Below, piece after piece: positions 16,330 to 32,925 of a DNA stretch of 64,000 bases (position 1 is the stretch's first letter; each line of letters begins with the position of its first letter). The notes beneath the pieces were generated by a model that ran no database searches, had not been told where the DNA came from, and saw only the letters and a program-made list of their open reading frames with translations. The stretch is from positions 4,683 through 68,682 of the forward strand of contig JABXHQ010000004.1 of assembly GCA_013373545.1 (NCBI GenBank), given 5' to 3'. The DNA is from Gammaproteobacteria bacterium. GTDB lineage: Bacteria; Pseudomonadota; Gammaproteobacteria; Enterobacterales; Kangiellaceae. The translations under genes were made by a program, and so were the position numbers.

Positions 16330-18768
16330 ATGCCAGTCGGTAAAGGCTTTATCTTATCTAAAGACTGGTACGACTCACGCCAACACGGACTGTGTTTCGA
16401 ATACTGGGTGAGTACTGACCAAGGTCCCTTTCAACTCATCTTTCAACAGCAGTCTTCAGTGTTTTTTGTTACCGAGAAAGATTTACCAACGGTCAAGCAG
16501 CTGCTAAATAAAGAGATTGAATCTGGGCATTGGCGTTACCAATCGCTAACTCTAAAATCCTTTACCGATGAAAACATGGTTGGAATTTATTTCACCCGCC
16601 AAAACGCATTTTACCGCGCACGTTCGGCGCTTAGAAATATTGATATCTACCCTCTCGAATCGGACATTCAACCACAACAACGTTTTTTGATGGAGCGATT
16701 TATAACTGCGGGCATTGACTTTGAGTATACTTCTGACGCACTCGATAAACAGCAACCTCAGCGCATTTATAACCCTCGTATTCGCAGCGGAAATCATCGA
16801 CCTCAGTTAAGTTTGTTATCACTGGACATTGAAACATCAATGGATGGCCGGCATCTATATTCTATAGGCCTGATGCTACAAAGTGAAAAGCAAACAGAGC
16901 GTCTTGTCTTAATGGTCAACCTAAACAATGAAAAAAGTGAAATCGACTACTTAACCTATTTCTCGAGTGAAAAGGATCTACTAACTCATTTTATTGAACG
17001 CTTTCAAATGCTCGACCCCGACATTGTAACCGGTTGGAATGTGATTAATTTTGACCTCCGGTTTTTACAGAAAAAATGCGAGCAACATGGCCTTGCTTTG
17101 CGACTCGGTCGTTTACAAACGCCACTGCAGTGGCGCACCGCGATGGACAACGAACAACACTTTTTAGTAGACGTACCCGGAAGAGCAGTACTCGACGGGA
17201 TCGAGACAATGCGCTCTGCTACTTATAACTTTGAAAGTTTTAGCCTTAATGCAGTAGCGAAGCAACTGCTCGGTAAAGAAAAGTTATTTCACGGAAGTAA
17301 TCGCGGCGACGATATTGAATATAATTTTCAGCATAACAAACCTCTGCTCGCAGAGTACAACTTAATCGATTGTGAGCTGGTGTTAGAAATTTTCGCTCAT
17401 TGCCACTTAATTAATTTTTCTATTGAGCGAGCGTTTCTTACTGGTTTAAATATCGATCGTTTCGGAGGTTCGGTCGCAGCGTTTGATAATCGATATCTAC
17501 CATTATTACATCGAAATGGCTATATCGCGCCAAATATTCCGCAAACGCCTGAAAATATTGGTAGCCCCGGAGGTTATGTAATGGATTCTAAACCGGGTAT
17601 TTACCATCACGTTTTAGTGCTCGATTTTAAAAGTCTGTATCCGAGTATCATTCGTACGTTTAATATTGATCCACAAGGGCTGATCGAAGGGCTAAAGATT
17701 GAGCCGCATACGGCAATTAAAGATCAACAGGAAACCAAAGTTCACGATCCTCGTTTAGTAATTAGCGGGTTTAATGGTGCAGTTTTTTCTCGGAATGAAA
17801 GTATTCTTCCACAATTGATCGAGCATCTCTGGCAAGCACGCGATCGCGCAAAGCGTGAAAACAATCCCGCCATGTCGCAAGCTATTAAGATATTGATGAA
17901 TTCATTTTATGGCGTACTGGGAACGCCCGGCTGTCGTTTTTTTGACTTTCGCCTGCCGAGCTCTATTACTCTACGAGGCCATCAAATTCTTTATAAAACA
18001 AAAGCGGTCATTGAGCAAAAGGGCTACCAAGTCATCTATGGTGATACTGATTCAGTGTTTGTTTGGCTCAAAGGTTTTCATCAAAAAATCAACCCAGATA
18101 CCATCAACGATATTGGTCAGTCGCTTGCCTCCGAGCTCAATCAATGGTGGCGCAATTTTATCAGCGAAGAGTATCAGCTAACTAGCCATCTTGAACTCGA
18201 GTTCGAAACTCAATTTCAAACTTTCATCATGCCAACGATTCGCGGTTCCGAGCGTGGTTCGAAGAAACGTTATGCAGGACTGCAAGTAAATGATGGTCGG
18301 GAAAAACTAGTATTTAAAGGATTAGAATCGGTTAGAACTGACTGGACTCTCGCCGCAAGAGAATTTCAAACGGAGCTTTATCGTCGAGTGTTTTACCATG
18401 AAGAATTTCAGTCGTTTATTGTCGAGACAGTCGCCAAAATTCAACGCGGAGAGCTCGATGAAAAATTAATGTATCGGAAGCGAATTCGCCGTAAACTCGA
18501 TAGTTATCAACGTAACGTTCCGCCGCATATTCAAGCCGCACGCAAAGCCATTGAACGAGATAGCAATTTACAGAAAGCGTTTAGTAAAGGCGCTTGGGTT
18601 GAGTACTTTCTTACCCATAATGGACCCGAAGCTCGTCAGCAACGACATTCATCACTCGATTACGATTTATATATAGAGCGACAAATACGACCGATTGCCG
18701 ACAGTCTGTTACAATTTTATCAGCTGCGATTTGACGATCTTATCAACCCGCAGTCGACATTGTTTTAA
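16330..18768 (+). CDS. polB: DNA polymerase II (family B)
   Basis: Exo 'LSLDIET'; 'VLDFKSLYPSII', 'KILMNSFYGV', 'YGDTDS', 'KKRYAG', 'GLESVRTDWT'. Confidence 0.95.
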   Translation: MPVGKGFILSKDWYDSRQHGLCFEYWVSTDQGPFQLIFQQQSSVFFVTEKDLPTVKQLLNKEIESGHWRYQSLTLKSFTDENMVGIYFTRQNAFYRARSALRNIDIYPLESDIQPQQRFLMERFITAGIDFEYTSDALDKQQPQRIYNPRIRSGNHRPQLSLLSLDIETSMDGRHLYSIGLMLQSEKQTERLVLMVNLNNEKSEIDYLTYFSSEKDLLTHFIERFQMLDPDIVTGWNVINFDLRFLQKKCEQHGLALRLGRLQTPLQWRTAMDNEQHFLVDVPGRAVLDGIETMRSATYNFESFSLNAVAKQLLGKEKLFHGSNRGDDIEYNFQHNKPLLAEYNLIDCELVLEIFAHCHLINFSIERAFLTGLNIDRFGGSVAAFDNRYLPLLHRNGYIAPNIPQTPENIGSPGGYVMDSKPGIYHHVLVLDFKSLYPSIIRTFNIDPQGLIEGLKIEPHTAIKDQQETKVHDPRLVISGFNGAVFSRNESILPQLIEHLWQARDRAKRENNPAMSQAIKILMNSFYGVLGTPGCRFFDFRLPSSITLRGHQILYKTKAVIEQKGYQVIYGDTDSVFVWLKGFHQKINPDTINDIGQSLASELNQWWRNFISEEYQLTSHLELEFETQFQTFIMPTIRGSERGSKKRYAGLQVNDGREKLVFKGLESVRTDWTLAAREFQTELYRRVFYHEEFQSFIVETVAKIQRGELDEKLMYRKRIRRKLDSYQRNVPPHIQAARKAIERDSNLQKAFSKGAWVEYFLTHNGPEARQQRHSSLDYDLYIERQIRPIADSLLQFYQLRFDDLINPQSTLF

Positions 18769-18777
18769 AGCCAAGTT

Positions 18778-19320
18778 TTAAAGCCAACGCCAGGGCTTAC
18801 TTGCTTGCTCGGTGAAAGGAATATCGACATCCACGGTTCCGTACCCATGTTCAATTAATTGAGTGCGAACTTGATTGCAAAAATCGAGCGTATTCATTCG
18901 TACCAGCGTTTCATGATTACCGCCCTTAAAAACGATCTCAAAGCGCTCAAATAATTCACGAGCAAACAACACATTCATCCCGTAAAGATGCCCGAATGGT
19001 GGCTCAGCGCCGACTTCGCAGTCACTAAACATATGCTCCAGAACAGCATCGCTCAGCAAGTTAACTTGTTTACAGCCAAGTTCCTTCGCTAATGCTTTCG
19101 GAAAGACTTCACAATCGGCCGGAATAACCATCATTACGCGGGTAAAATCGTTGCTACTGGCAAATCCAACTAACTCAACAACTTCAACCCGTGCCAGCTG
19201 ATTCAAGGGGATTTGCGCCAGCACAGCCGTCTCCGCAAGTGACTCTGTGCGCGGATGATGAAGCATCTGGTAATGTATATTTTCAGCATCTAAATACTGA
19301 AAGGCTGTTGGCATGGTCAT
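18778..19320 (-). CDS. YbaK/EbsC-family aminoacyl-tRNA deacylase-like protein
   Basis: 'MLHHPRTES', 'FSDCEVGAEPPFG', 'GGNHETLVRM'. AGGAGG RBS before ATG 19320. Confidence 0.8.
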   Translation of the reverse strand: MTMPTAFQYLDAENIHYQMLHHPRTESLAETAVLAQIPLNQLARVEVVELVGFASSNDFTRVMMVIPADCEVFPKALAKELGCKQVNLLSDAVLEHMFSDCEVGAEPPFGHLYGMNVLFARELFERFEIVFKGGNHETLVRMNTLDFCNQVRTQLIEHGYGTVDVDIPFTEQASKPWRWL

Positions 19321-19448
19321 AACACCTCCTTGATGTTTTTTCCGCCCGAACATTCATATTAGTGTTTTTTCACAAAAATTCGCAACGGATTTGCCACCTA
19401 AGCCAGTAAATTCAGCAAAAGACAGCTGTTTAATCTCCTCAGCCTTTC

Positions 19449-19470
19449 AAAACCTTATTTTTCATAAGGT
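19449..19470 (-). terminator. Possible weak intrinsic terminator after the YodC-like gene
   Basis: ACCTTAT-GAAAA-ATAAGGT hairpin followed by a short U run on the minus strand. Confidence 0.4.
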
Positions 19471-19539
19471 GGCGTTATAGGAAACCCAACTTGAAAATCT
19501 CAGCTCTGCAATAACCACAAAGGTTACCGTTCGGCCGTA

Positions 19540-19743
19540 TTAACTCACTTTCTGTAATTGTTGCTGGTGAAAAACCTGCTTCTTCAGGGTTGTCCCAACA
19601 AACCATTTACATAAGACATCGTCTTCTTGGAAGCCATTCTCAATCAGCTGGCCAGCTTCTTTTTCGGGTAGCTGGTTGACCATTGAATAGACGGTCATTT
19701 TCACTTCGCCGTTTTCGACTTGAACTATGTCACCAATTTGCAT
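19540..19743 (-). CDS. YodC/DUF2158 family small protein
   Basis: 'IGDIVQ....KMTV', 'VLCKWF.G', 'F....L'; GAGG RBS. Confidence 0.75.
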   Translation of the reverse strand: MQIGDIVQVENGEVKMTVYSMVNQLPEKEAGQLIENGFQEDDVLCKWFVGTTLKKQVFHQQQLQKVS

Positions 19744-19842
19744 GTCGCACCTCTCAATAAAATGAATTGCTCGAATTAAACCGGTTGGTTTGGGGGCTCC
19801 GTCCCCGATCCGCCAACAAATTACTGCTGTTTCGGTTGCATA

Positions 19843-20025
19843 TTAGGTATCCATATCAGGAGGACATTCTGGGAAAGCTTTACATTCGGTCACACCCATT
19901 CCAGCACCATTATCAGTGGATACTTGTACCTGGACTTCAGCATCGGTTTGCGTGTCGTCACTGGTTACTGAGCCGTCACCGTTTAATAATCCTAAAAGAA
20001 TCAAGAAGATATTGATATTAGTCAT
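19843..20025 (-). CDS. 60-aa acidic peptide with a hydrophobic N-terminus and C-terminal C-x5-C motif
   Basis: GAGG RBS upstream of the ATG; own sigma70-like promoter; sequence MTNINIFLILLGLLNG...GAGMGVTECKAFPECPPDMDT. Confidence 0.65.
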   Translation of the reverse strand: MTNINIFLILLGLLNGDGSVTSDDTQTDAEVQVQVSTDNGAGMGVTECKAFPECPPDMDT

Positions 20026-20099
20026 GATATTTACCTCACTTATAAAAAAATTTTACTACTCGCAGCGCGGTTAATTTTTAATCGTTTTGTTGCTGCTGA

Positions 20100-20128
20100 G
20101 TTATAAGTTACGGCATTTGAGATGTGAA
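20100..20128 (-). promoter_or_regulatory. Sigma70-like promoter of the peptide gene
   Basis: Minus strand TTCACA (20128-20123) - 17 nt - TATAAC (20105-20100); each hexamer is one mismatch from consensus. Confidence 0.65.
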
Positions 20129-20195
20129 TGCTGTGAAAAGTAAGCGCAATTAATGTGAATAATCCAATAATTTGCTTACCGAGACAGCTAAATGA

Positions 20196-22325
20196 CTATT
20201 TTTTCGGCGCTTTAGGTGCCAGCAACAGCAAATCGACCTCACCCTCAAGGGTTTGTGTGCCGATATACCATTGACCATGGTTGGGAACGGAAATGCGAGA
20301 GCCATTCAAATCGCGATCAATCAATTGTATTTGTTGACTGTCATGCGCTAGAAAGTAAAGGGTATCGTTTTGAGTAAAGTAGAGCCCCTGATCGGTGGCG
20401 CTCCAGCGACCAGTTTTGTTTATCGACTGCTCCACCGGAAAAAAGACTTTTTCGGCTTCCGGATCTTGCGGGACCCGCCAAAATCCATTGATCTTAAAGT
20501 TAGCCACGTAGGTTAACTCAGTACCCGGCGCTTCGAGCACGATAAAAGCATCATTCGGCAGTTTGGGCACTTCGTCATATTCGCCGTTGATTCCAATAAC
20601 GGTTTGCTCCCATTGCTCCATATGCTTAACCGCAACGAAAGCACTGGTACTATCACGGCGCCATTGAAAGTTTTTATAATAGCGATTCTGATCACCCCAG
20701 ATAATTTCATTACTTTCATTATCAATAATGAACCATCGACCACTGGCCGTGCCTCCCAAAAACTGCGAATTAGGAGAAAAGCTTAAATCGGTAAACTTAA
20801 GATTATTTTTTAAATAGGTAAGTTGCCGTGAATGCCCTTGTTCGTCACGGATCCAAACTTGATAGACCCCGGAGCGATTACTCACCCAAGCCAACTGCAT
20901 GCCATCCATGGAGACCGCGGGTAAAAAGTCTTGATAAGAAGAGCTTTCGACTTTCTCAACTTTCTCTTGTGACAGGTAGTGTTGCAAGAGGTCGCTCTTA
21001 AAATAACTACCTGAGGCATACACTAGACTGCCATCTTTAAGGACCATTGGCGCCAGAATAGGAGTCTCGGCGCGGGTTAAAATACTAATAAAACCGCGAG
21101 TTACATCGTATTCAAGGATCTCATTGGAGTCATTCTTAAAAATTATTTTTTCGTTACCAAACCACTCAACGGTATGTAATACCGAATCTACGGTTTCAAT
21201 CAGCTGGGTTTCCCACGTGCGCGTGTCGTAAAGCCATACCTCGGTTTGAGACCAGTTTTTGTTCCGCAGCACCGCCAAAGAAAGTCCATCTTGGCTAACA
21301 GAGAAGTAATAATCCCCTTTACCACTTGGGGGCGGCGAAGCGATTGGCCAGCTCTCTCCGCTACTGAAAGAGTGAGAATAAATAATAAACGGTTCGTTCA
21401 CCGATTTCGCACGGTTAAAATACATTCCTTGCTCATCGTTCCACAGGTGTCCTTGAGCCGTTTGTGAAAAAGTATTACAAGCCACCAATTGACGCTCATC
21501 GACGACCGCACGTTTAACCGCATCAAAACTGGCTATATAAAAGTGACAAGCCTGATCTTCAAAACGTGAAAAAATAAATTTGTTTTTTGCTGTCCAGCGC
21601 GGCAGCCTTTCGTAGCGATCCCCTTGACTTAATTTAATTAAATCTCCGGTTTTCATATCACGCACATAGACTTGCCAAAAAACCTGACCTTCTGGCTTAT
21701 GATTGAATAACATCCAGCGTTGATCCGCTGAAATTGAGGGGTAATTTTCGATCCCTTTAAAATGGCTTAAGGGCATTGCGGTTTCATATTCTTGTTGCAT
21801 GACTGCGCCACGCATAGATTCACGAAACCCATCGAACCAATACCAACCAAACAAAAAAACCGACACACTGGCGGCAATAAAGGCACCAAGTGCCCAAAAG
21901 TATTTGTCTTTAATTGGCAGTCCGGCAATGATGTCATCGTCGAGAAATTGCACCGGAGCGATCAACCGATAGCCGTGTCCCAGTTTATTCTCGATGTACT
22001 TTTTCTCTTTATCAGTATCATCGAACAGTTTACGCAAAACGGTAACTTGCTTGCGCGTAGATGAATCATCTTTATATTGATTGCCGTAAATAAACTTATG
22101 AATATCATTTAATGAAACATAAGAGTTGGAGTTTTCTAACAGCAATAACAATAGTCGAATGGAGTTGGGAGTGATGTTACGAACTTCGCCGCTCTCAGTG
22201 GTCACGGTCTTTTCATTAAAATCGATGACGCAATCGCCGATCTGGATCGGATGAGCGCTCCAGTCATCGAACAAATCGTGTTCTTGCTTGCTTTCTGTTT
22301 GTGAAGAAGGCAACTCTGTCATCAA
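20196..22325 (-). CDS. Membrane-anchored one-component regulator: OmpR/CadC-type winged-helix, single TM helix, periplasmic TolB-like beta-propeller (PD40-like repeats)
   Basis: wHTH 'STRKQVTVLRKLF...YIENKLGHGYRL'; TM 'YFWALGAFIAASVSVFLFGWYWF'; repeats 'YPSISADQRWMLF', 'FSVSQDGLSLAV', 'PAVSMDGMQLAWVSNRSG', 'LSFSPNSQFL'. Confidence 0.88.
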   Translation of the reverse strand: MMTELPSSQTESKQEHDLFDDWSAHPIQIGDCVIDFNEKTVTTESGEVRNITPNSIRLLLLLLENSNSYVSLNDIHKFIYGNQYKDDSSTRKQVTVLRKLFDDTDKEKKYIENKLGHGYRLIAPVQFLDDDIIAGLPIKDKYFWALGAFIAASVSVFLFGWYWFDGFRESMRGAVMQQEYETAMPLSHFKGIENYPSISADQRWMLFNHKPEGQVFWQVYVRDMKTGDLIKLSQGDRYERLPRWTAKNKFIFSRFEDQACHFYIASFDAVKRAVVDERQLVACNTFSQTAQGHLWNDEQGMYFNRAKSVNEPFIIYSHSFSSGESWPIASPPPSGKGDYYFSVSQDGLSLAVLRNKNWSQTEVWLYDTRTWETQLIETVDSVLHTVEWFGNEKIIFKNDSNEILEYDVTRGFISILTRAETPILAPMVLKDGSLVYASGSYFKSDLLQHYLSQEKVEKVESSSYQDFLPAVSMDGMQLAWVSNRSGVYQVWIRDEQGHSRQLTYLKNNLKFTDLSFSPNSQFLGGTASGRWFIIDNESNEIIWGDQNRYYKNFQWRRDSTSAFVAVKHMEQWEQTVIGINGEYDEVPKLPNDAFIVLEAPGTELTYVANFKINGFWRVPQDPEAEKVFFPVEQSINKTGRWSATDQGLYFTQNDTLYFLAHDSQQIQLIDRDLNGSRISVPNHGQWYIGTQTLEGEVDLLLLAPKAPKK

Positions 22326-22545
22326 TAGAATTCTCAGTTGGGGCCTAAATTGGCTACCAAATATGCAAATATTATTTTAATTATCAAAGAGATACACCAC
22401 TAGCGATGATTCTAGCATTGTTGCGCAGCGGAATTAACAGTAATTTTTAAGATTAAATCATTTATAAAGATTATACGAGAAGAAAAGCGACAGAGCGCAT
22501 AGAACTGATGTGAATATTCAACATCAAATATCTCAGGTGCGAGAT

Positions 22546-22830
22546 TTACGCAAATTCCTCGAGCATTAATAGCCACATTAGAAAAGTCATGACCACTAAG
22601 CCAATCACCGACCACGTCAAAGGCGTTGACATCTCCCCGAGAAAAGTTAACGAAGGCGCCCACTGTACCAGTGCGCTGACACCGAGTATTGCGCACACTA
22701 ATGCCGCCACGCCACACAAGGTTAGTATCCAGTAACGGCGCTTTAATTGTACATTAAGGCGCTGATTGAACGCGTCAATAAAGCCGCGATCAGACAAGGT
22801 TTGGTGATAAGCCAGTAATTTTTCTAGCAT
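22546..22830 (-). CDS. Small two-TM membrane protein, putative anti-sigma factor
   Basis: GGAGG RBS before ATG 22830; charged N-terminus and two hydrophobic helices; directly downstream of the ECF sigma. Confidence 0.6.
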   Translation of the reverse strand: MLEKLLAYHQTLSDRGFIDAFNQRLNVQLKRRYWILTLCGVAALVCAILGVSALVQWAPSLTFLGEMSTPLTWSVIGLVVMTFLMWLLMLEEFA

Positions 22831-22849
22831 CCTATTTTCCTCCAATCGA

Positions 22850-23407
22850 TTAAGCCACAGCTTCAGCATCTATAATTTGATGCAGTTTGCGTTTCGCCCG
22901 CGCAATGTGTGACTTTACCGTACCTAACGGCATTCCCGTCACTTCGGTAATTTCGCCATGGCTCATACCTTCACTACAATTTAACGTCAGGGTTAGCCGT
23001 TCTTCAACCGATAAATGGCTCATCAATTTCTCGGCCAAAATATCGGCTTCAACAGCATCTCGAGACTCTAATTGTTGCCAGCTAATATCACAGGGCGTTT
23101 CGTACTTTTCTGCACCAGTTGTAACCACTCGAATAAAGCGGTTGTATGCCAAACGCCTCAACCAACCGGCAAAACTACCGGTTCCTTTAAATTGCGCTAG
23201 GTTCTGATAAGCCAGCATGAAACTATCTTGCGCCACATCATCAGCTAAGGCGTAATCACCCGCTGATATACGGCGCAAAAACTGCCGAAGTGCTGACTGA
23301 TGATGAGCAACCAGCTGAGAAAAAGCCGATTGCTCACCGTTTAGTGCTCTTGCGATCAAGAGACGATCTCGTTCCATGCGCCAACCTATTGGTCGTGTTT
23401 CAATCAT
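22850..23407 (-). CDS. ECF (group 4) RNA polymerase sigma-70 factor
   Basis: Region 2 'ADDVAQDSFMLAY..L.QFKG..SFAGWLRRLAYN'; region 4 'GMSHGEITEVTGMPLGTVKSHIARAK'. ATG overlaps the upstream stop codon. Confidence 0.92.
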   Translation of the reverse strand: MIETRPIGWRMERDRLLIARALNGEQSAFSQLVAHHQSALRQFLRRISAGDYALADDVAQDSFMLAYQNLAQFKGTGSFAGWLRRLAYNRFIRVVTTGAEKYETPCDISWQQLESRDAVEADILAEKLMSHLSVEERLTLTLNCSEGMSHGEITEVTGMPLGTVKSHIARAKRKLHQIIDAEAVA

Positions 23408-23765
23408 TATAGCGATTTAATTTCCAAACCAATAGGAATCCAATGCCAACAAACATTGGAAACAAGGACAGCATCATAAACACTACTCGAGCGTCTGGCT
23501 CATCCATAATTAAGCCCGCACAAAAACCGGCTAACCCAATGGCCGTTGCGACTACGCCACGGCGAAGATCTTTAACTCTTGGCGAATGAGTTCCCGCCAA
23601 CTTTTCTAATAGCTCAGGGGTTAGGGATTGTCCTTGATCGATGGAATGCCTGATCGTCTGTTGAATACCTTCTTTATTCTTCTTTGAGTAATAGAAAAAG
23701 GTTATCAACACAGCCGCGATGGCCAAAAACATTGTAATAGGAATAAAAATTTCAACGGAATTCAT
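23400..23765 (-). CDS. DUF6249-like membrane protein
   Basis: 'IFIPITMF', 'TIRHSIDQGQSLTPELL', 'DLRRGVV..AIGLA', 'PMFVGIGFLL'. Confidence 0.7.
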   Translation of the reverse strand: MNSVEIFIPITMFLAIAAVLITFFYYSKKNKEGIQQTIRHSIDQGQSLTPELLEKLAGTHSPRVKDLRRGVVATAIGLAGFCAGLIMDEPDARVVFMMLSLFPMFVGIGFLLVWKLNRYND

Positions 23766-24691: not shown

Positions 24692-25489
24692 ATGAAGTCG
24701 TTCAACATTCTGGTTATAGATGATGCCAGCATGATCAGGGATTTGATTAAGAAGTTTGTGCGGGATTATTTTCCTGGCGCCAAGTTGTTCGACGCTCACA
24801 ATGGACAGTCAGGCAAGTCGGTTTTACTGCACCAAGAAATCGACCTCATTTTATGTGACTGGGAGATGCCTGAAATGAATGGCATGGAACTGTTACAATG
24901 GATCCGCCAAGAAGAGCGTTACAAAAACAAGCCCTTTATTATGGTAACCAGCCGTGGCGACAAGGAGTTTGTTGTCGAAGCTATCGAAGCCGGCGTTAGT
25001 GATTATTTAGTCAAGCCGTTTAATCGGCAACAGTTCGCTGAGAAGGTCGAGCGGGCACTAAAGCGTCATGGCATCGTTGGCCGTATGGCACAACCGAAAC
25101 AAGCCGCTTCTTCATCATTAGAAGTTTTAACCGGAAGTAAATCGCCTGCTAAAGCTAAAGCATCCGCCCCACTACCAAAAGGTGTTGCGTTAGTGCGTAC
25201 ATCCAGCGGACATGTAAAGTGTGCTGTGAAGAATCTTACCAAAACAAGTTGCATCGGCATATTTAAGAATGATGGTTACATTCCTGAAATTTTGGAACAA
25301 GTTGCGGTTGATATTGAATTTAAACAGCAAGGAGAATCGAAAGTTATGCGCATCAATGGTTTTATACTCGGTATTCAGGCCGCAGAAAACAAACCCGATG
25401 CACAACTCTTTCAATTAACCCTCACCCTAATGGATGAGGATCCTGAGAAGCACCGACTTATTGAAGAATATGTGGCACAGTTTAATTAG
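24692..25489 (+). CDS. Response regulator (REC) with a C-terminal degenerate PilZ-like domain
   Basis: 'ILVIDD', phospho-acceptor 'LILCDWEMP', 'MVTS', 'YLVKPF'; C-terminal beta-rich domain. Confidence 0.8.
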   Translation: MKSFNILVIDDASMIRDLIKKFVRDYFPGAKLFDAHNGQSGKSVLLHQEIDLILCDWEMPEMNGMELLQWIRQEERYKNKPFIMVTSRGDKEFVVEAIEAGVSDYLVKPFNRQQFAEKVERALKRHGIVGRMAQPKQAASSSLEVLTGSKSPAKAKASAPLPKGVALVRTSSGHVKCAVKNLTKTSCIGIFKNDGYIPEILEQVAVDIEFKQQGESKVMRINGFILGIQAAENKPDAQLFQLTLTLMDEDPEKHRLIEEYVAQFN

Positions 25490-28400
25490 TTTTTTTTAAC
25501 CTTATCCACTGCTCTGCTCGCTCACTTGCCTGACGACATAGATTTTGCCAGCCGGCTCTTAAATTATCTAAACCAATATAAATTGACGGTAAGATCAAAA
25601 GACTCACAATCGTTGAAAATGCCAAACCACCAATTACTGCTCGCGCCATCGGATAGTAGGAAGGAGAATTTGCTCCCCCGCCTATAGTTGTGTCTCCCAT
25701 ACTCAGCGGGATTAATCCTAAGATAGTTGTGGCAACGGTCATTAATATTGGCCGCAACCTATCACGTCCACCTTGAATTATCGCTTGCTCGCGAGAGTAA
25801 CCTTGCTTGCGTAAATGATTAATATGATCGATTAAAACAATTCCATTATTTACCACCACGCCCATCAATACCAAAATCCCGATAAACGCCATGATCGACA
25901 ATTGCGTTCCGGTAATGAAGAAAAACCAATATACTCCGACCACGGCATAAATAATCGATGAAATAACCGCTAACGGAAATAACAGTGATTCGAACAAAGC
26001 AGCCATCACAACAAAAATCATCATGACAGCAAGCAACATATTGAATACCATAATGTTATCGTTTTGTGCTTCTTGATCGAACGCTCGCCCCAAGGTCCAT
26101 TGATAACCATCTGGCAGAGCGAGTGACTTCATCACTTTTTCAATTTCCTTCTTCGCTTCATCAAGCGTAAAGCCATCATCGAGAGAAGCGACCACACCAA
26201 TACTGGTACGACGGTCCATTCTTCTAATCGAGTTTGCAGCTTGCTTTACTTCAAAACGTGCAACAGCGGATAGTGGAATTTGTTCACCATTGGGCAAAGG
26301 TAGCTGTAAAAACTTCAAGTCACTAACACTGCGTTCATATTGGTCACCATACTCAAGCATTACTTCGATTTCATTGTCTTTCCCGCGGAATGATCGTAAC
26401 GGTTGACCACGCATTGCTACGGCAATCAAGTTTGCAATTCTCGCTGGATCCATACCAATATTCTGGGCTTTTATGCGATCAACGATAATACGGAATTCGC
26501 GGTCTTTTGATGCGGCTTCGGAGCGTGCTTCGACAACACCATCTATTGAGCGAATCAATCGCTCAACATCCTCGCTCAAGCCTCGCAACACTTCGGTCGA
26601 CTCTCCAGAAACAAATACTTTGATTGCTTCTTGTTGCCCGCGATTGCGATCGAAACTTGGCCGCCCAATCGCTAACTCGGGCATATTTTCTTCAATAAAC
26701 TTTCGAATTTCCGTTACGCTACGCGTAACTTTATCGCCTTCAGTCAATAAAATGGTCGACTCCGCTCGGTTGTTATTATAAAAACTGTAAACCGATTCGA
26801 TATTCAGAAACTCTTTGTTGTCATATAAAAAGGCTTCCATTTTATCGACTTCTTTTTCAATCCGTTCGATACTGTATTGACTATCAATATTATAAGGAAG
26901 AAATAAACGGCGTTTGGTGTCATCTGAAAAATTATCTTTTTTAACAAAAACTGCAGGTATAGCAATGCTAACCAATGTTAACAAGGCAATAAAAGTAGCC
27001 CAGTAAGGCCGCGCTATCATCCAACGTAGACAACCTTCATAACGATCAGTCAAACGATTAATAATTGGACTGGCAGATTGCTTACTACTGATATTCAGCT
27101 TAATTAATAATAACGGTATAATGGTTAACGCAATAAATAATGATGCAGCTAATGCAATTACAATTGTTATTGCTACATGACTAAGAAAAATCGTAAAACT
27201 TACCTTCTCACCAATAATATTAGGTAAAAATACAATTGCCGTTGTTAAAGTACCAGCAAAGACTGCCACACCGACCTCTTTAACTCCATGAATAACTGCC
27301 TTGCGATTATCATCAGGATATTGGGCTTGATAGCGAAAAATACTTTCGGTTACCACCACAGCATTGTCGACCAGCATACCAATTGCCAGCATAAGCCCCA
27401 TCATCGAAAGTATGTTCAGCGATACTCCAAGAAAGAACATAGATGCCAAAGTAATGGCCAATGCAAACGGAACCGCTAACGCCACAATTAACGTTGTTGC
27501 AATATCACGCAGAAATAAATACAAAACGATAATCGAAAAGACAAATCCAATAAGACCGGAAAAGCTAATATCCTTTAACGACTGGGTAATACCGTCTGCT
27601 TGATTATCCATAACGAATAATTTAATCCCTTGAAAAGCGGGATCATTCTCAGCATTCTCGATGGCTTTAAGTACATTGCTGGCAACTTCTACCATATTTG
27701 CACTCGATTGGCGCAATATATCTAAACCGATGGCATAATCCTGATCAAGGTGGCGTCCTTCTTGTCGCTCTGGTTGTTGTAGCGTTATGGAAGCTATATC
27801 TTTTAATTTTACGCCTTGCTGATTTAGTATGATTTCTTCAAATGATTTCAAATCGGTGAACTCACCGAAAGGCTTTACCCGAAAGCGAGAGTTTGCGGCA
27901 GTAATTTCGCCGGCACTCACATTAAAATTTTCTTCACGCAGGCGCTGAGTTAATTGTTCCAAGTCAATTTTATGTGCAGCAACTCGCTCAGCATCCAATT
28001 GAATACGGACTTGTCGCTTATCAACACCATATAAGGTAACTTTTGAAACCCCATCAATTCGTTCGATGGGACGCTTTAATTTTCGGTCAAGTAAATCGTA
28101 AGCGTTTGATAAGTCTCTTTCGGATGACACACGGAGTGTCATCATCGGTTGATTATCGGTTGTAAAACTGACAATAAAAAATCGCTGCAAATCATCGGGA
28201 AGCTGATCACGAATCGCATCAATTTTTTCGCGCGCTTCAACACTCTTCAACCGAGGGTTTTCTGACCATGCGAACTGCATAAAGATCTCAACTCGATTGT
28301 CAGATGTCGTCGAGTTAATCATTCTAAGCGCGCTCATTGTCGATAGAACTTCCTCGACTGGACGAGTTATAACTTCTTCGACTTGTTCCGCAGACGAATT

Positions 28401-28556
28401 TGGATACGGAATAGATACGATAATCCCAGGAAAACTTATCGAAGGGAAGTACTCAAGCGGCAGCAAGCGCGAACCAATTAAACCGGTTACCACAAAGCAG
28501 AGAAAAAACATCATGGTAGTAACGGGGCGCTTTAAAGCTAATGTCGTTAATTTCAT
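25482..28556 (-). CDS. RND efflux permease (AcrB/AcrD/AcrF family), second subunit
   Basis: 'LPLEYFPSI.FP', 'IGMLVDNAVVV', 'GVVVNNGIVLID', 'RLRPILMT'; 1024 aa. Confidence 0.92.
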   Translation of the reverse strand: MKLTTLALKRPVTTMMFFLCFVVTGLIGSRLLPLEYFPSISFPGIIVSIPYPNSSAEQVEEVITRPVEEVLSTMSALRMINSTTSDNRVEIFMQFAWSENPRLKSVEAREKIDAIRDQLPDDLQRFFIVSFTTDNQPMMTLRVSSERDLSNAYDLLDRKLKRPIERIDGVSKVTLYGVDKRQVRIQLDAERVAAHKIDLEQLTQRLREENFNVSAGEITAANSRFRVKPFGEFTDLKSFEEIILNQQGVKLKDIASITLQQPERQEGRHLDQDYAIGLDILRQSSANMVEVASNVLKAIENAENDPAFQGIKLFVMDNQADGITQSLKDISFSGLIGFVFSIIVLYLFLRDIATTLIVALAVPFALAITLASMFFLGVSLNILSMMGLMLAIGMLVDNAVVVTESIFRYQAQYPDDNRKAVIHGVKEVGVAVFAGTLTTAIVFLPNIIGEKVSFTIFLSHVAITIVIALAASLFIALTIIPLLLIKLNISSKQSASPIINRLTDRYEGCLRWMIARPYWATFIALLTLVSIAIPAVFVKKDNFSDDTKRRLFLPYNIDSQYSIERIEKEVDKMEAFLYDNKEFLNIESVYSFYNNNRAESTILLTEGDKVTRSVTEIRKFIEENMPELAIGRPSFDRNRGQQEAIKVFVSGESTEVLRGLSEDVERLIRSIDGVVEARSEAASKDREFRIIVDRIKAQNIGMDPARIANLIAVAMRGQPLRSFRGKDNEIEVMLEYGDQYERSVSDLKFLQLPLPNGEQIPLSAVARFEVKQAANSIRRMDRRTSIGVVASLDDGFTLDEAKKEIEKVMKSLALPDGYQWTLGRAFDQEAQNDNIMVFNMLLAVMMIFVVMAALFESLLFPLAVISSIIYAVVGVYWFFFITGTQLSIMAFIGILVLMGVVVNNGIVLIDHINHLRKQGYSREQAIIQGGRDRLRPILMTVATTILGLIPLSMGDTTIGGGANSPSYYPMARAVIGGLAFSTIVSLLILPSIYIGLDNLRAGWQNLCRQASERAEQWIRLKKTN

Positions 28557-28565
28557 GATATCGTC

Positions 28566-31500
28566 CTATTGCTTGCGATCAACCAATGAATAAAGTACTG
28601 GAATAACCACGAGAGTCAGAAGCGTCGACACAATTAAGCCACCAATTACCGTGATGGCCATTGGGGCTCGAATTTCAGCACCCTCGCCTAACCCAAGCGC
28701 TAACGGTAGCATCCCAAGCGTCGTAGTCAAAGTGGTCATAATAATTGGTCGCAGCCGAGTAGAGCCGGCTTCAAATATAGCTTCCAGTTTATCTTGACCT
28801 TGGGCGCGTAACTGGTTGATTTTGTCGATTAACACAATTGCATTATTTACGACAATGCCCGCAAGCATTATCAATCCGATAAACACCACAACACTGATGG
28901 TCGATTGCGTTAAAAACAACGCATAAACTGCTCCCACCAACGCCAAAGGCACACTGAATATAATAATAAATGGATGTAACAGGGACTCAAATTGCGACGC
29001 CATTACTAGGTAAACTAAAAATATTGCCAGTGCTAACGCGACTTTAAGTGAATTAAAGGAAACTTCCATTTCTTCATTCTGACCGGCTACCACAATTTCG
29101 ACACCCGATACATCCGGTAATTGAGCTACTTCGCGCTGTAACTGCAACGCCGCTTCGCCCAGATCACCATAAGTTAAATTAGCCGAGATAATGGCAACAC
29201 GTTCCTGAGAGATACGATTAATTTCATTGGGACCGATAGCAACCTCAATTGTCGCAATACTCTCTAAAGTAATCGGCCTTGCTGCCAACGGATTAACCAC
29301 AAGATTGCGAATATCGTCAATTGAAGATCGATCGTCTTCTTGCACACGCACTAAGACATCTATTTTACGATCACGAAAGGCGTATTTGGTGGCCACATTT
29401 CCACGAATCTGAGCAACGACATTACGTGCAATGCTGGGCACATTTAAACCAAGTGCAGCGGCACGCTGATGGTCGAACTTGATCTGAATTTCTGGAAAAC
29501 CTTGCTGAATGGTTGACTTAATATCCCCAAAGCGGTCATTAGCTTCCAACAACTCGACTAACCGATCATTCTGCTCCTTAACTTTATCTAAGTTATAGCC
29601 ATAGATCTCAACTTCGAGTGGTGTTTTAAAGGTAAATAAAGCTGGCTTTTCAATCTTCACTTCGATATCTGGAATACTGGCTAATCGCTCACGTAACGCT
29701 GCCGTCACACTGGCTTCTTTCGCTTCGGTAAATGGACGCGAAATAACAACATTAACCTCAGCGCGATTCTCACCACCTTTCTCAGGACTCGAGTCTAGTC
29801 GATTACCACTACCTGTCACAGAGTAGGTATGAGCAATTCCGGGAATTTCGTTCGCCAAACGATGAACCGACATAACGATTTTGTCAGTCTCCTCGATTGG
29901 AGTTCCAGCAGGCGCTTGAATTTCAACAATTAACTCTCCTTGTGAAAGAGACGGAATTAACTCAACACCAATTTTACCTAGTAACGCAATACTGGATGCG
30001 AAGGATGCGATAGCCACAACCAATACTATAAATCGATGCTGTAATGACCATGGCAATAACTTTCGGTAACCATTTTCTAACCCATTGTAAAACCAGTTAA
30101 AAGGAACAACCAGAAGCTGCATGAACAGCCGAAGTAGAATACTGATGCCTTTAAATAATGCAGTAAACAAAGTGGCGAAAAACGGAATTATCACTTTAAA
30201 AATAAAGTGAAATGGCCACATAAAAATTCTTGCAACAATACCTCGTTCCTCGCGCTCAGCGACGTCCTCTGAACTTAACTGATACGGCTGTTTAATTCCT
30301 CCCCGAGCGGAAACCATGGGTATCACGGTGAGGGCCATTAGTAGCGAAATAATTAAAGCAAAAGTTACGGTTAGGGCTTGGTCACTGAATAACTGACCAG
30401 CGATTCCCTCAACAAAAACTAACGGTAAAAATACAGCAATCGTGGTCATTGTGGCAGCAAAGATTGCTCCAGCAACTTCTGAGGCACCTTCACGAGCAGC
30501 AGTGACTTGATCAAGCCCTTGCTCTTTTTTACGAGCTATGTTTTCCAATACGACAATCGCATTGTCGACTAGCAAACCAACAGCTAACGCTAAACCACCC
30601 AAAGACATAAGATTTAAAGTGATACCAAACTTATACATCAAATTAAAGCTTATGATCACTGAAATGGGTATCGCTAGAGATATAATCAATGTCGACTTAA
30701 AGTTACGCAAAAACAAATACAGAACAAGCATAGCTAACAACCCACCGATGAACGCATTTTGCAGCACTTCGTTAATTGCGTTTTCGATGAAAGTTGACTG
30801 ATTATAAAGTTCATCAACTTTTATAGAATCACTTAAGCTCTTCTTAATAAAATTTAAACGCGACGAAACTCTTTCGGCTACCGATACGGTATTGGCATCA
30901 CCTTCTTTATAAATGGCAATTTCTACCGCTTCATTGCCGCTAAAACGAGTTATCGCTTCACGTTCTTTAAATCGCTGCTGAACAGTTGCGATGTCCTTAA
31001 GAAATATCGGTTTTCCATTTACAATCGTAATGATTGAGTTAGCAATCTCGTCAATACTTTGATATTGATTTATCGTGCGTACTAAGAACTGCTGAGTGCC
31101 TTCATCGAGACGGCCTCCCGAAAGGTTTACGTTCTCAGCCTGTAAGCGACTAGCCACTTGCTCAATCGACAGATTTATTTGACTGAGCTTCTGTTGGTCG
31201 ACCAATACTTGAACTTCATCTTCAAGACCACCACTTACTTTAACCGCGGCAACCCCTTCAATGGACTCAATGCGTCGCTTGATCTCTTCATCAGCAAGGC
31301 GACGTAATTCAATTAACTCAGATTCGGTTAAAGTTTCTTTCTCATTATCGTCGAAAGTGAGCGATAAGCGAATGATAGGCGCTAGAGTTGGATTAAAACG
31401 TAATAAGCTTGGTCGAGGTACATCTAATGGCAAATTAACCACATCGAGTTTTTCACGAACATCCAAACCGGCCATTCCCATATCCGTTCCCCAGTTGAAC

Positions 31501-31793
31501 TCGAGAATAACATCGGATTGTCCAGCTTTTGATGTTGAGCGAATTTGACGCAAATTACGTACAACACCGATCGACTCTTCAATTGGCTTAGTTATTAAAT
31601 TTTCAACTTCTGAGGGAGCTGCACCTGTGTATTCAGTTCTAATAGTTAAGGTGGGATAGGAAAGATCAGGTAGTAATGTTAAACCTAATCTGCCTAACAA
31701 AACAAAACCGAAAATACATAAGGCCAGTGTAAACATGAAGACCGTAACTGGCCGTCTCGTTGAAGTCTCAACGACAGATGCAGTGAAGCTCAT
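28566..31793 (-). CDS. RND efflux permease (AcrB/AcrD/AcrF family), first subunit
   Basis: 'LLPDLSYP', 'VGLLVDNAIVV', 'GIVVNNAIVLID', 'RLRPIIMTT'; 1075 aa. Confidence 0.92.
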   Translation of the reverse strand: MSFTASVVETSTRRPVTVFMFTLALCIFGFVLLGRLGLTLLPDLSYPTLTIRTEYTGAAPSEVENLITKPIEESIGVVRNLRQIRSTSKAGQSDVILEFNWGTDMGMAGLDVREKLDVVNLPLDVPRPSLLRFNPTLAPIIRLSLTFDDNEKETLTESELIELRRLADEEIKRRIESIEGVAAVKVSGGLEDEVQVLVDQQKLSQINLSIEQVASRLQAENVNLSGGRLDEGTQQFLVRTINQYQSIDEIANSIITIVNGKPIFLKDIATVQQRFKEREAITRFSGNEAVEIAIYKEGDANTVSVAERVSSRLNFIKKSLSDSIKVDELYNQSTFIENAINEVLQNAFIGGLLAMLVLYLFLRNFKSTLIISLAIPISVIISFNLMYKFGITLNLMSLGGLALAVGLLVDNAIVVLENIARKKEQGLDQVTAAREGASEVAGAIFAATMTTIAVFLPLVFVEGIAGQLFSDQALTVTFALIISLLMALTVIPMVSARGGIKQPYQLSSEDVAEREERGIVARIFMWPFHFIFKVIIPFFATLFTALFKGISILLRLFMQLLVVPFNWFYNGLENGYRKLLPWSLQHRFIVLVVAIASFASSIALLGKIGVELIPSLSQGELIVEIQAPAGTPIEETDKIVMSVHRLANEIPGIAHTYSVTGSGNRLDSSPEKGGENRAEVNVVISRPFTEAKEASVTAALRERLASIPDIEVKIEKPALFTFKTPLEVEIYGYNLDKVKEQNDRLVELLEANDRFGDIKSTIQQGFPEIQIKFDHQRAAALGLNVPSIARNVVAQIRGNVATKYAFRDRKIDVLVRVQEDDRSSIDDIRNLVVNPLAARPITLESIATIEVAIGPNEINRISQERVAIISANLTYGDLGEAALQLQREVAQLPDVSGVEIVVAGQNEEMEVSFNSLKVALALAIFLVYLVMASQFESLLHPFIIIFSVPLALVGAVYALFLTQSTISVVVFIGLIMLAGIVVNNAIVLIDKINQLRAQGQDKLEAIFEAGSTRLRPIIMTTLTTTLGMLPLALGLGEGAEIRAPMAITVIGGLIVSTLLTLVVIPVLYSLVDRKQ

Positions 31794-31830
31794 GGAATTC
31801 CCCGTGGTTATAATTTTTATCAGTTGTTAA

Positions 31831-32925
31831 TTAGTTGTCTAGTTTCGCTATTTCTTTATTTGACTCTTTACGATTGAGCACATTGACTTTACTAGCATTT
31901 TTAAGGCTATTTTGGCCTGCTGTTACAACTAAATCACCTTGATCCAAACCAGAGGTAATCTCTACATAATTACTATTTTCAAAGCCTAACTTTACCGCTT
32001 GTTTCTCAGCTTTTTCCCCCGACACTACGAATACTGTTGGCTTGTCTTCTTCGGCAATTAAAGCCGCTTTACTTACCAATAGCGTGTCTTTGTGGTTTGC
32101 GTATACGACATTTACTCGGCCAAACATACCCGAACGTAATGTTGAGTCAGGATCGTTCACTTCCACCGTAACTTTGAAGGTACCGCTGGTTGCATCGACA
32201 ACGGGAGAGATCCGAAGTACTTGGCCGGCGAAAACTTTATCTAAGTTTGCATCCACTTTAACCTGTGCAAACTGTCCTTTTTGAATTTTGAACAACTCTC
32301 GCTCAGGTACATGGATGACCGCCAATAAGGGATCAAAGTCAGAGATACGAAATAGCGGGTCATTTAATTTAACCATGTTGCCTACTTTGATCATACGCTC
32401 TGAAACCACACCAGAAATAGGCGCTCGAATAGTACCGTAATCAAGTTGCAATTTGGCCAGCTCATAAGCAGCTTGCTGAGCTTGATAATCGAACTTCAAT
32501 CGCTCGTATACGTCAGAGCTCACCATTTTTTTCTCGTAGATGCGTTGGTTACGATCCAACTCCGCTTTGAGTCGCTTTAAGTTTGCTTGTGCTTGCATCA
32601 ACTCCAGCTGCATTTTTTCTGTATTTAAGCGTGCGAGTACTTGGCCAGCAACAACGCTATCGCCTTCTTCAACCAAGATATCCGTGATAATTTCACTCGC
32701 TTTCGCCACCACCAAAGCTTCTTCTTCAGCTTCTAGCGTTGTGGTATTGGAATAAACCGCATTGATATCACCGCGTACCACCTCTGCCACTTCAACAGGT
32801 ACAGCCGGCTCTTCTTTTTTCTTCGCTTCGGCTTCTTCTCCAAGCTTTACATCAGCACTGCAACCGATCAAAGCTACGGAGGCCAACAGCGTTGATAAAG
32901 CAAACGTCTTAATTCGAGATTCCAT
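31831..32925 (-). CDS. RND periplasmic adaptor (membrane fusion protein), lipoprotein
   Basis: Lipobox 'ALIGC'; 'VEEGDSVVAGQVLARL', 'IRAPISGVVSER', 'ISPVVDATSGT', 'LRSGMF'. Confidence 0.92.
   Translation of the reverse strand: MESRIKTFALSTLLASVALIGCSADVKLGEEAEAKKKEEPAVPVEVAEVVRGDINAVYSNTTTLEAEEEALVVAKASEIITDILVEEGDSVVAGQVLARLNTEKMQLELMQAQANLKRLKAELDRNQRIYEKKMVSSDVYERLKFDYQAQQAAYELAKLQLDYGTIRAPISGVVSERMIKVGNMVKLNDPLFRISDFDPLLAVIHVPERELFKIQKGQFAQVKVDANLDKVFAGQVLRISPVVDATSGTFKVTVEVNDPDSTLRSGMFGRVNVVYANHKDTLLVSKAALIAEEDKPTVFVVSGEKAEKQAVKLGFENSNYVEITSGLDQGDLVVTAGQNSLKNASKVNVLNRKESNKEIAKLDN

Follow-up and report, generated by a model that had tools for sequence, protein, structure and literature searches.

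The DNA analysed here, a stretch of 64,000 nucleotides (nt) from contig JABXHQ010000004.1 of a gammaproteobacterium of the family Kangiellaceae (assembly GCA_013373545.1; hereafter the window, in whose numbering all positions are given unless a locus is named), carries on its minus strand the gene of a transmembrane transcription regulator followed by the gene of a 60-amino acid (aa) peptide. We describe these two genes together with the operator-like block that lies between them and suggest, from their sequences and from related loci, that the regulator and the peptide gene probably form a regulatory circuit. The features on which this suggestion is built are the following.

20196..22325, minus strand: gene of the transmembrane transcription regulator, an open reading frame (ORF) of 709 aa from a TTG start
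21963..22181, minus strand: winged-helix DNA-binding domain of OmpR/ToxR type, predicted to be cytoplasmic, residues 49-121 (Pfam PF00486 Trans_reg_C, E = 6.7e-10)
21834..21902, minus strand: predicted single transmembrane (TM) helix, residues 142-164 (YFWALGAFIAASVSVFLFGWYWF), a hydrophobic stretch within helix 140-174 of the AlphaFold2 (AF2) model
20199..21788, minus strand: tandem beta-propeller sensor, predicted to be periplasmic, residues ~180-709 (all-beta region of the AF2 model, Foldseek)
20105..20159, minus strand: promoter/operator-like block ahead of the peptide gene (alignment of 12 intergenic regions)
20155-20159, 20133-20137 and 20124-20128, minus strand: TTCAC repeats within the block
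20145-20149, minus strand: degenerate TTGCG within the block
20105-20110, minus strand: -10-like TAACTT within the block
20034..20037, minus strand: ribosome binding site (RBS) GAGG, 8 nt ahead of the ATG, with (A/G)AGG at the same position in 12/12 loci
19843..20025, minus strand: gene of the putative 60-aa pre-pro-peptide (ORF, homologs, synonymous codon variation at invariant residues)
19978..20025, minus strand: conserved signal-peptide-like N-terminus (MTNINIFLILLGLLNG), presumably exported and cleaved
19864..19884, minus strand: C-terminal loop C48-K-A-F-P-E-C54, an instance of C-x2-[F/W/Y]-P-x-C, putatively closed by a disulfide

Because the database copy of the regulator has 708 aa, the length obtained from an ATG one codon after the TTG (22322), this ATG is the likelier start codon. 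In Pfam and NCBIfam scans, the protein had no match to a receiver domain or Response_reg; a PD40 repeat (PF07676) at residues 465-492 scored 37 bits against a cut-off of 20.9 in Pfam, and NCBIfam added weak matches to a TolB propeller and to the HilA/response-regulator output domain. The score against TIGR02800 (49.6 bits) is far under the cut-off of 343, ruling out that the regulator is a TolB ortholog. The AF2 model, built from 17 homologs and with a mean predicted local distance difference test (pLDDT) score of 85.5, is all-beta over residues 180-708 (~530 residues). When this region was compared with the PDB using Foldseek, tandem double propellers ranked first (LRP6 E3E4, axonemal and SSU-processome WD-repeat proteins, and beta'-COP), with TolB (4pwz) and tricorn (1k32) lower in the list and, therefore, the sensor exceeds a single TolB propeller in size. 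Of the architecture proposed in a first-pass annotation of the window, the winged helix and the one TM helix were thus borne out by Pfam and AF2, while the single TolB-like propeller gives way to a tandem double one. In the topology suggested by the model, the winged helix is cytoplasmic and the sensor periplasmic. Judged by these domain assignments and the model, the features that define transmembrane transcription regulators (PMC10269533) are present, and the protein is a member of this class of ToxR/CadC-like one-component regulators. Within the sensor, C259 and C282 (708-aa numbering) are the sole conserved cysteines and are invariant in 10/10 orthologs; the most conserved propeller positions (P326, P330, P331, D337) lie in a WPIAxPPPxGKGDY stretch.

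We note that in the complete genome of Pleionea litopenaei (CP133548; L015 1697-3822) a poly-A run is one nt short (A7), which splits the regulator into ORFs of 113 aa and 589 aa. A metagenome contig that is 99.7% identical to this locus (L018, 1654-3819) has A8 and an intact ORF, and the peptide gene is intact in both. The A7 is either a sequencing error or a strain/phase variant.

The peptide ORF lies 170 nt from the stop codon of the regulator and is preceded by the RBS, as described in the first-pass annotation; the acidic composition reported there (10 D/E versus 1 K) and the ending C48-KAFPE-C54-PP, in which PP follows C54, likewise stand in the sequence. The G-A-G-M-G hinge that was also singled out is conserved in no ortholog. 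Together with homologs from database searches, the peptides encoded in the 12 loci described below constitute a family of 20 distinct members of 57-64 aa. All 20 open with a conserved hydrophobic segment (consensus MTHINIFLFFLGL), are net acidic beyond residue 20, and terminate with C-x2-[F/W/Y]-P-x-C at 0-6 residues ahead of the stop. Within the family, pairwise identity averages 0.61 at the N-terminus, 0.16 in the acidic/polar spacer/linker, and 0.52 in the loop, values that fit the pattern of a pre-pro-peptide. The spacer contains a loosely conserved alternating stretch, Y-Q-x-V-x-A-V-D/E (P-x-Y-Q-x-V/I-x-A/V-V-D/E in the peptide alignment), which could be a short beta-strand adding onto a propeller blade or a processing site. 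An AF2 model of the peptide alone is disordered (pLDDT 53) and has no strands and, therefore, we take it to behave as a peptide and not as a folded domain.

The 60-aa ORF is a real gene, conserved and under selection. A six-frame translation of the 64-kb window contains C-x2-[FWY]-P-x-C a single time, and each related locus likewise has it once, where it ends the syntenic small ORF, a pattern that is well beyond chance. The codons used for invariant Cys, Pro, Gly, and Leu residues vary synonymously from locus to locus and, in the first 13 codons of nine loci, approximately half of the comparisons between identical residues differ in codon; thus, selection acts on the protein and not on the DNA, and this codon analysis led us to reject a non-coding ORF. 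The Cys-loop tail is co-conserved with the regulator, a point that the first-pass annotation had proposed to check, with an invariant motif and a coding-type substitution pattern. In one metagenome-assembled genome, the peptide gene is duplicated in tandem (L010 5265-5447 and 5574-5753; same in L011), and the two copies have an almost identical N-terminus, an identical tail (ECVEWPICPPDQ), and a diverged spacer. Pfam and NCBIfam scans of all 20 peptides returned nothing at E <= 0.01; the best matches, CPCFC (E 0.02) and the frog-skin signal/propeptide family (0.095), were treated as chance. By inspection, the peptides have no lipobox Cys, RR motif, G-F-T-L-x-E, or GG leader, and lipoprotein, Tat, prepilin, and double-glycine leaders were dropped as candidates.

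The hydrophobic run at the N-terminus spans 9-18 residues (9-15 in most members) and is followed by Pro/Gly; judged by sequence, it resembles the h- and c-regions of a signal peptide and appears short for a TM span. We also considered that the N-terminus might stay uncleaved and hold the peptide in the inner membrane beside the regulator as a non-diffusible partner similar to ToxS, TcpH, or MgrB, which would stabilize, inhibit, or redox-gate the regulator via its periplasmic Cys pair. For such an arrangement, the conservation of the N-terminus is above what is usual for signal peptides, MgrB is the precedent of a feedback protein for which two periplasmic cysteines are essential (bioRxiv 10.1101/438515), the regulator has an invariant, predicted periplasmic Cys pair of its own, as has CadC (PMC3096576), and a partner gene downstream of the regulator gene is a hallmark of co-component systems (PMC9214523). 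However, the length of the run and the Pro/Gly behind it are typical of signal peptides, a folded periplasmic domain such as those of the lipocalin-like VtrC and ToxS is missing from the peptide, and its gene does not overlap the regulator gene but lies 113-357 nt away with its own promoter-like block. Taken together, we consider a membrane-anchored partner quite unlikely.

Regulator orthologs are present in 12 loci (the window, L001-L005, L008-L010, and L015-L017) and form a discrete group at 40-100% identity, below which there is a gap followed by remote homologs at 20-23%. In 12/12 loci, an ORF of 57-62 aa lies downstream of the regulator on the same strand at a distance of 113-357 nt; absence of the peptide ORF beside homologous regulators had been named beforehand in the first-pass annotation as grounds for refutation, and the ORF is there over the entire range of ortholog identities. 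In the databases searched, every peptide for which the context was inspected adjoins a regulator ortholog, and every ortholog inspected has a peptide gene downstream. We conclude that the regulator and the peptide gene strictly co-occur within the clade. As in pheromone cassettes, a precursor gene is linked to a candidate receptor gene across species, here within one clade. Word-indexed, profile, and hidden Markov model (HMM) searches found the peptide family in no bacteria but Pleionea, the genus of the window, and its close relatives; among 1.84 billion representative proteins, a full HMM scan gave ten matches, all of this peptide type, and a scan of metagenome contigs with a 7-sequence peptide alignment gave one locus. 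In L005, the pair persists without the extracytoplasmic function (ECF) sigma genes upstream and without the DUF2158 and YbaK-like genes downstream; the sigma genes upstream are also missing in L009, in which the contig ends just past the peptide gene.

Upstream of the peptide gene, the DNA of the 12 intergenic regions is unalignable except for one strongly conserved block that stands out and has the consensus TTCAC-N5-TTGC-N8/9-TTCACAGC-N-TTCACA-N12-TAAnnT in 12/12 regions. The repeats are spaced by N4 and N17 between TTCACs and by N5 to TTGCG, generating an array of three to four sites that abuts the -10. TAAnnT keeps the three most important positions of a -10 hexamer, and there is no -35-like hexamer 17 nt upstream of it, where the proximal repeats occupy the spot. 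Consensus scans identified neither a sigma-70 promoter ahead of the peptide gene nor a terminator 3' of the peptide gene or of the regulator gene. Therefore, while the peptide gene appears to have a promoter of its own as proposed in the first-pass annotation, this is not a sigma-70 consensus promoter but a conserved direct-repeat block without a -35. An exact TTCAC-N4-TTCAC is found once in the window and in the peptide promoter of 8 further loci. Direct repeats that abut a -10 without a -35 are the mode of action of winged-helix activators of the OmpR/PhoB family. Read most simply, the block would mediate activation of the peptide gene by a winged-helix protein, for which role the adjacent regulator would be the obvious candidate, and the TTCAC array would be compatible with autoinduction. 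Of note, CreB and BlrA, regulators of the OmpR family, have TTCAC-N6-TTCAC as their documented tag (PMC13214185). An ATATCTC element lies ahead of the first TTCAC repeat in most loci and is missing in the window. A search of positions 18500-23500 against Rfam gave no match at E <= 1, and folding of the peptide 5'-untranslated regions (UTRs) of six loci revealed no shared or significant structure; an attenuator in the peptide leader was rejected on the latter ground.

The genomic context and the repeats also bear on the possibility that the two genes are unrelated neighbors that lie side by side in a stable region, with a different factor, for instance a CreB-like response regulator, binding the TTCAC block. 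Such an explanation would be in line with the synteny of the wider region throughout the clade, from a resistance-nodulation-division (RND) pump through a response regulator and GNAT to polB, and with TTCAC being the known half-site of a different member of the regulator family. By contrast, it sits poorly with the survival of the pair after loss of the immediate flanking genes (L005), with the intact pair down to 40% regulator identity, and with the pairing of every peptide and every ortholog with inspected context. We regard unrelated neighbors as very unlikely.

Based on these features, we suggest the following working model. (i) The regulator would bind the TTCAC array that replaces the -35 of the peptide promoter and activate this promoter, as PhoB- and CreB-type regulators do. 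(ii) The peptide would be exported by Sec and its N-terminus removed, and its cysteines would be oxidized in the periplasm to close a 7-residue loop presenting the invariant aromatic-Pro pair. (iii) Either the peptide itself or a fragment from its C-terminus would dock on the propeller and change the activity of the regulator. (iv) A feedback loop would thereby be closed, the sign of which could be either way. The peptide might cross the outer membrane and serve as a cell-to-cell signal in quorum sensing, or it might stay in the periplasm as an MgrB-like modulator or redox reporter. Propellers of this kind bind short peptides, as in the case of TolB with the TolB box of colicins and LRP6 with disulfide-constrained peptides, and LRP6 structures with such peptides occur among the Foldseek matches of the sensor. 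In this model, we infer export and cleavage, the disulfide, the protein that binds the repeats, binding of the peptide to the propeller, and the feedback sign. Our working hypothesis, that the peptide gene is switched on by the regulator and that its product, once exported and closed by a disulfide, feeds back on the propeller, is a tentative one that we hold with somewhat less than even confidence, and with equal caution we suggest that the two genes make up a regulatory module restricted to Pleionea and close relatives. The ligand-receptor relationship that was put forward in the first-pass annotation is, as far as sequence comparison goes, partly supported.

Several observations weigh against this working model. 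Three remote homologs with the same architecture of winged helix, TM helix, and propeller, found at 20-23% identity in a Roseateles genome and in metagenomes of soil and other origin, lack both a peptide ORF downstream and the room for one; it follows that the propeller needs no such peptide in general and that the peptide is a clade-specific addition and not a general companion of this regulator architecture. With every locus coming from a single syntenic clade related by vertical descent, adjacency is weak to moderate evidence of coupling. The hydrophobic N-terminus noted in the first-pass annotation is signal-like in its run, but 16/20 family members lack K/R in the first six residues and, therefore, export is not assured. 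Moreover, the N4 and N17 spacings do not match the N6 of the cre/blr tag, and a winged-helix protein other than the regulator could be the binder of the TTCAC repeats. Finally, the conserved module includes no gene for outer-membrane export or processing, and the sequence runs that hold the locus are four seawater DNA metagenomes and no RNA runs.

In an alternative in which the peptide gene is a target only, the propeller would sense something else, and the regulator would switch on the peptide gene with the peptide as a pure output without feedback, e.g. a secreted effector, an antimicrobial, a protease-inhibitor-like loop, a metal- or redox-active peptide, or a signal to a different organism. 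Remote propeller regulators that work without such a peptide are as expected in this case, and P326, P330, P331, and D337 are invariant or nearly so even when these peptide-less homologs are included. Also, the repeat block at the peptide promoter fits equally well, and transmembrane regulators commonly control adjoining genes (CadC-cadBA, PsaE-psaA, VtrA-vtrB), which we count in favor of this alternative. The peptide as a mere output thus fits the data almost as well as feedback does. However, it leaves unexplained why a disordered acidic peptide of ~40 residues with a tiny loop is the sole conserved neighbor of the regulator and why selection acts on the loop and N-terminus alone, and there are no immunity, transport, or modification genes alongside, such as usually accompany bacteriocins and ribosomally synthesized and post-translationally modified peptides (RiPPs). 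We consider a pure output possible, if doubtful.

In a more specific version of the feedback model, the peptide would be a disulfide-cyclized, gene-encoded autoinducer that is sensed in the periplasm by the propeller of the very regulator that activates its gene, making the two genes a one-component quorum-sensing or autocrine circuit in which the fast-diverging loop positions would define 'pherotypes'. A ~4.5-kDa peptide does not pass porins; for the export of periplasmic disulfide peptides by a TolC-type route, STa is a precedent. This version is weakened by the peptide-less remote homologs, the single syntenic clade, and the lack of an export or processing gene in the module, and we think it unlikely.

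The following features surround the pair.

22409..22417, minus strand: the regulator's own promoter, an extended -10 (TGCTAGAAT) conserved in the aligned upstream regions
22526-22547, minus strand: conserved palindrome AAATCTC-N7-GAGATAT (core ATCTC-N7-GAGAT) upstream of the regulator
22546-23765, minus strand: ECF sigma set (DUF6249 membrane protein, ECF sigma-70, DUF3040-like small membrane protein), directly upstream of the regulator in most loci
19540-19743, minus strand: gene of a DUF2158 protein of 67 aa, ~100 nt past the peptide gene
25482-32925, minus strand: RND efflux operon (HlyD-type membrane fusion protein (MFP) and two AcrB-like pumps), ~5 kb from the peptide gene

The region upstream of the regulator differs from the block at the peptide promoter. 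The DUF3040-like protein may be an anti-sigma factor, and because the ECF sigma set is missing in L005 and L009 we place it outside the core pair. The peptide gene and the DUF2158 gene have no recognizable terminator between them, and one transcript may cover both; L005 and L010 lack DUF2158. In those loci whose flank extends far enough (L004-L007), an AcrB-like pump gene (PF00873) occupies the same position at the edge, and the proximity of the RND/MFP operon to the peptide gene may be coincidence. The neighbors of the pair vary between loci and comprise DUF2158, a YbaK-like deacylase, PolB, and ECF sigma with DUF3040-like and DUF6249; in agreement with the first-pass annotation, which saw no adjacent RiPP-modifying enzyme, there is no maturase in any locus and no dedicated protease/transporter gene beside the peptide gene, leaving a RiPP cluster unsupported. 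Two of the three remote homologs lie near PF00144 (beta-lactamase/penicillin-binding protein-like) genes (L012 812-2269, L014 1-761); the TTCAC half-site is that of CreB/BlrA, which respond to cell-wall perturbation, and this parallel may be coincidence.

Ribosomal peptide signaling is regarded as a Gram-positive speciality, and the known inputs of Gram-negative transmembrane regulators are folded partner proteins (ToxS, VtrC) or small molecules. If our working model is correct, a circuit in which a propeller regulator senses a 60-aa disulfide-loop peptide and also controls it would add a new type of input to this class and provide the first functional handle on the widespread, uncharacterized regulators that combine a winged helix, a TM helix, and a propeller; the module is also small enough for transplanting. 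If the peptide is only an output, the operator-like array and the peptide family would still be new annotations for an unstudied marine lineage.

In the literature, we found neither a propeller-type transmembrane regulator paired with a peptide nor anything on this Pleionea locus. Transmembrane regulators with a periplasmic partner are documented (PMC9214523). The co-component regulators (ToxR/ToxS, VtrA/VtrC, TcpP/TcpH, and PsaE/PsaF; PMC9214523, PMC10269533) share with the regulator described here an OmpR-type winged helix, one TM helix, and a periplasmic sensor, and a second gene on the same strand codes for a periplasm-facing partner, which for the peptide presupposes its presumed export. 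By contrast, their partners are TM-anchored, lipocalin-like proteins of 130-180 aa while here a disordered 60-aa peptide ends in a C-x5-C loop; their partner genes overlap or abut the regulator gene while here 113-357 nt separate the two genes and the peptide gene has a repeat-bearing promoter of its own; and their sensors are small alpha/beta domains while here a tandem beta-propeller comprises ~530 residues. Thus, the pair has neither the overlapping genes nor the lipocalin-like partner that define the VtrA/VtrC-ToxR/ToxS superfamily (PMC9214523).

MgrB is a membrane protein of 47 aa with two essential periplasmic cysteines and belongs to the regulon of the system that it inhibits (bioRxiv 10.1101/438515). 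The likeness to MgrB-PhoQ/PhoP (bioRxiv 10.1101/438515, PMC10576120) lies in a length of <65 aa and two conserved cysteines, which are periplasmic in MgrB and proposed to be so here. Similarly, MgrB is transcribed under the system that it modulates and couples signaling to periplasmic redox, both of which are proposals in the case of the peptide. MgrB has no sequence similarity to the peptide, spans the membrane with a full TM helix, and has a histidine kinase as its target, whereas the peptide has a signal-like hydrophobic segment, a long acidic spacer, and a one-component regulator as candidate partner. Cyclo(Phe-Pro) (cFP), which is sensed by the periplasmic domain of Vibrio ToxR (PMC6934829, PMC3760244, bioRxiv 10.64898/2026.07.20.739674), resembles our proposal in that a self-produced aromatic-Pro compound, the periplasm, and a transmembrane winged-helix regulator come together in a Gram-negative bacterium. 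However, cFP is a free diketopiperazine and not a gene-encoded loop, and the sensor domain of ToxR is unrelated to the propeller; the parallel to the invariant aromatic-Pro pair is only a lead. The cre/blr tag (PMC13214185) also consists of TTCAC direct repeats upstream of genes, and the winged helix of CreB/BlrA belongs to the same superfamily. Its binder is a phosphorylated response regulator while the presumed binder here is membrane-anchored.

The precursor of the E. coli heat-stable enterotoxin STa comes close to the peptide in size and is a pre-pro-peptide from a Gram-negative cell, made up of a Sec signal, a pro-region, and a disulfide-bonded mature part at the C-terminus; STa is oxidized in the periplasm and released via TolC-type export, i.e. 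such a route out of the cell exists. STa differs in having three disulfides, a receptor in the host as its target, no homology to the peptide, and no adjacent receptor gene. In the Gram-positive pheromone cassettes (Phr-Rap/RNPP, Agr), a small precursor gene with an export signal, a variable pro-region, and an active C-terminus lies next to the receptor gene, the receptors are cytoplasmic tetratricopeptide repeat proteins or histidine kinases, and there are dedicated genes for processing or import. The pair resembles these cassettes in the position of the precursor gene beside the gene of a candidate receptor and in its fast-diverging positions, and a duplicated peptide gene is seen here; it differs in that the candidate receptor is a transmembrane transcription factor with a beta-propeller and in that there is an outer membrane to cross. 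By analogy, we suggest that the pair would work most like a hybrid between a Gram-positive pro-peptide pheromone cassette and an MgrB-type feedback loop.

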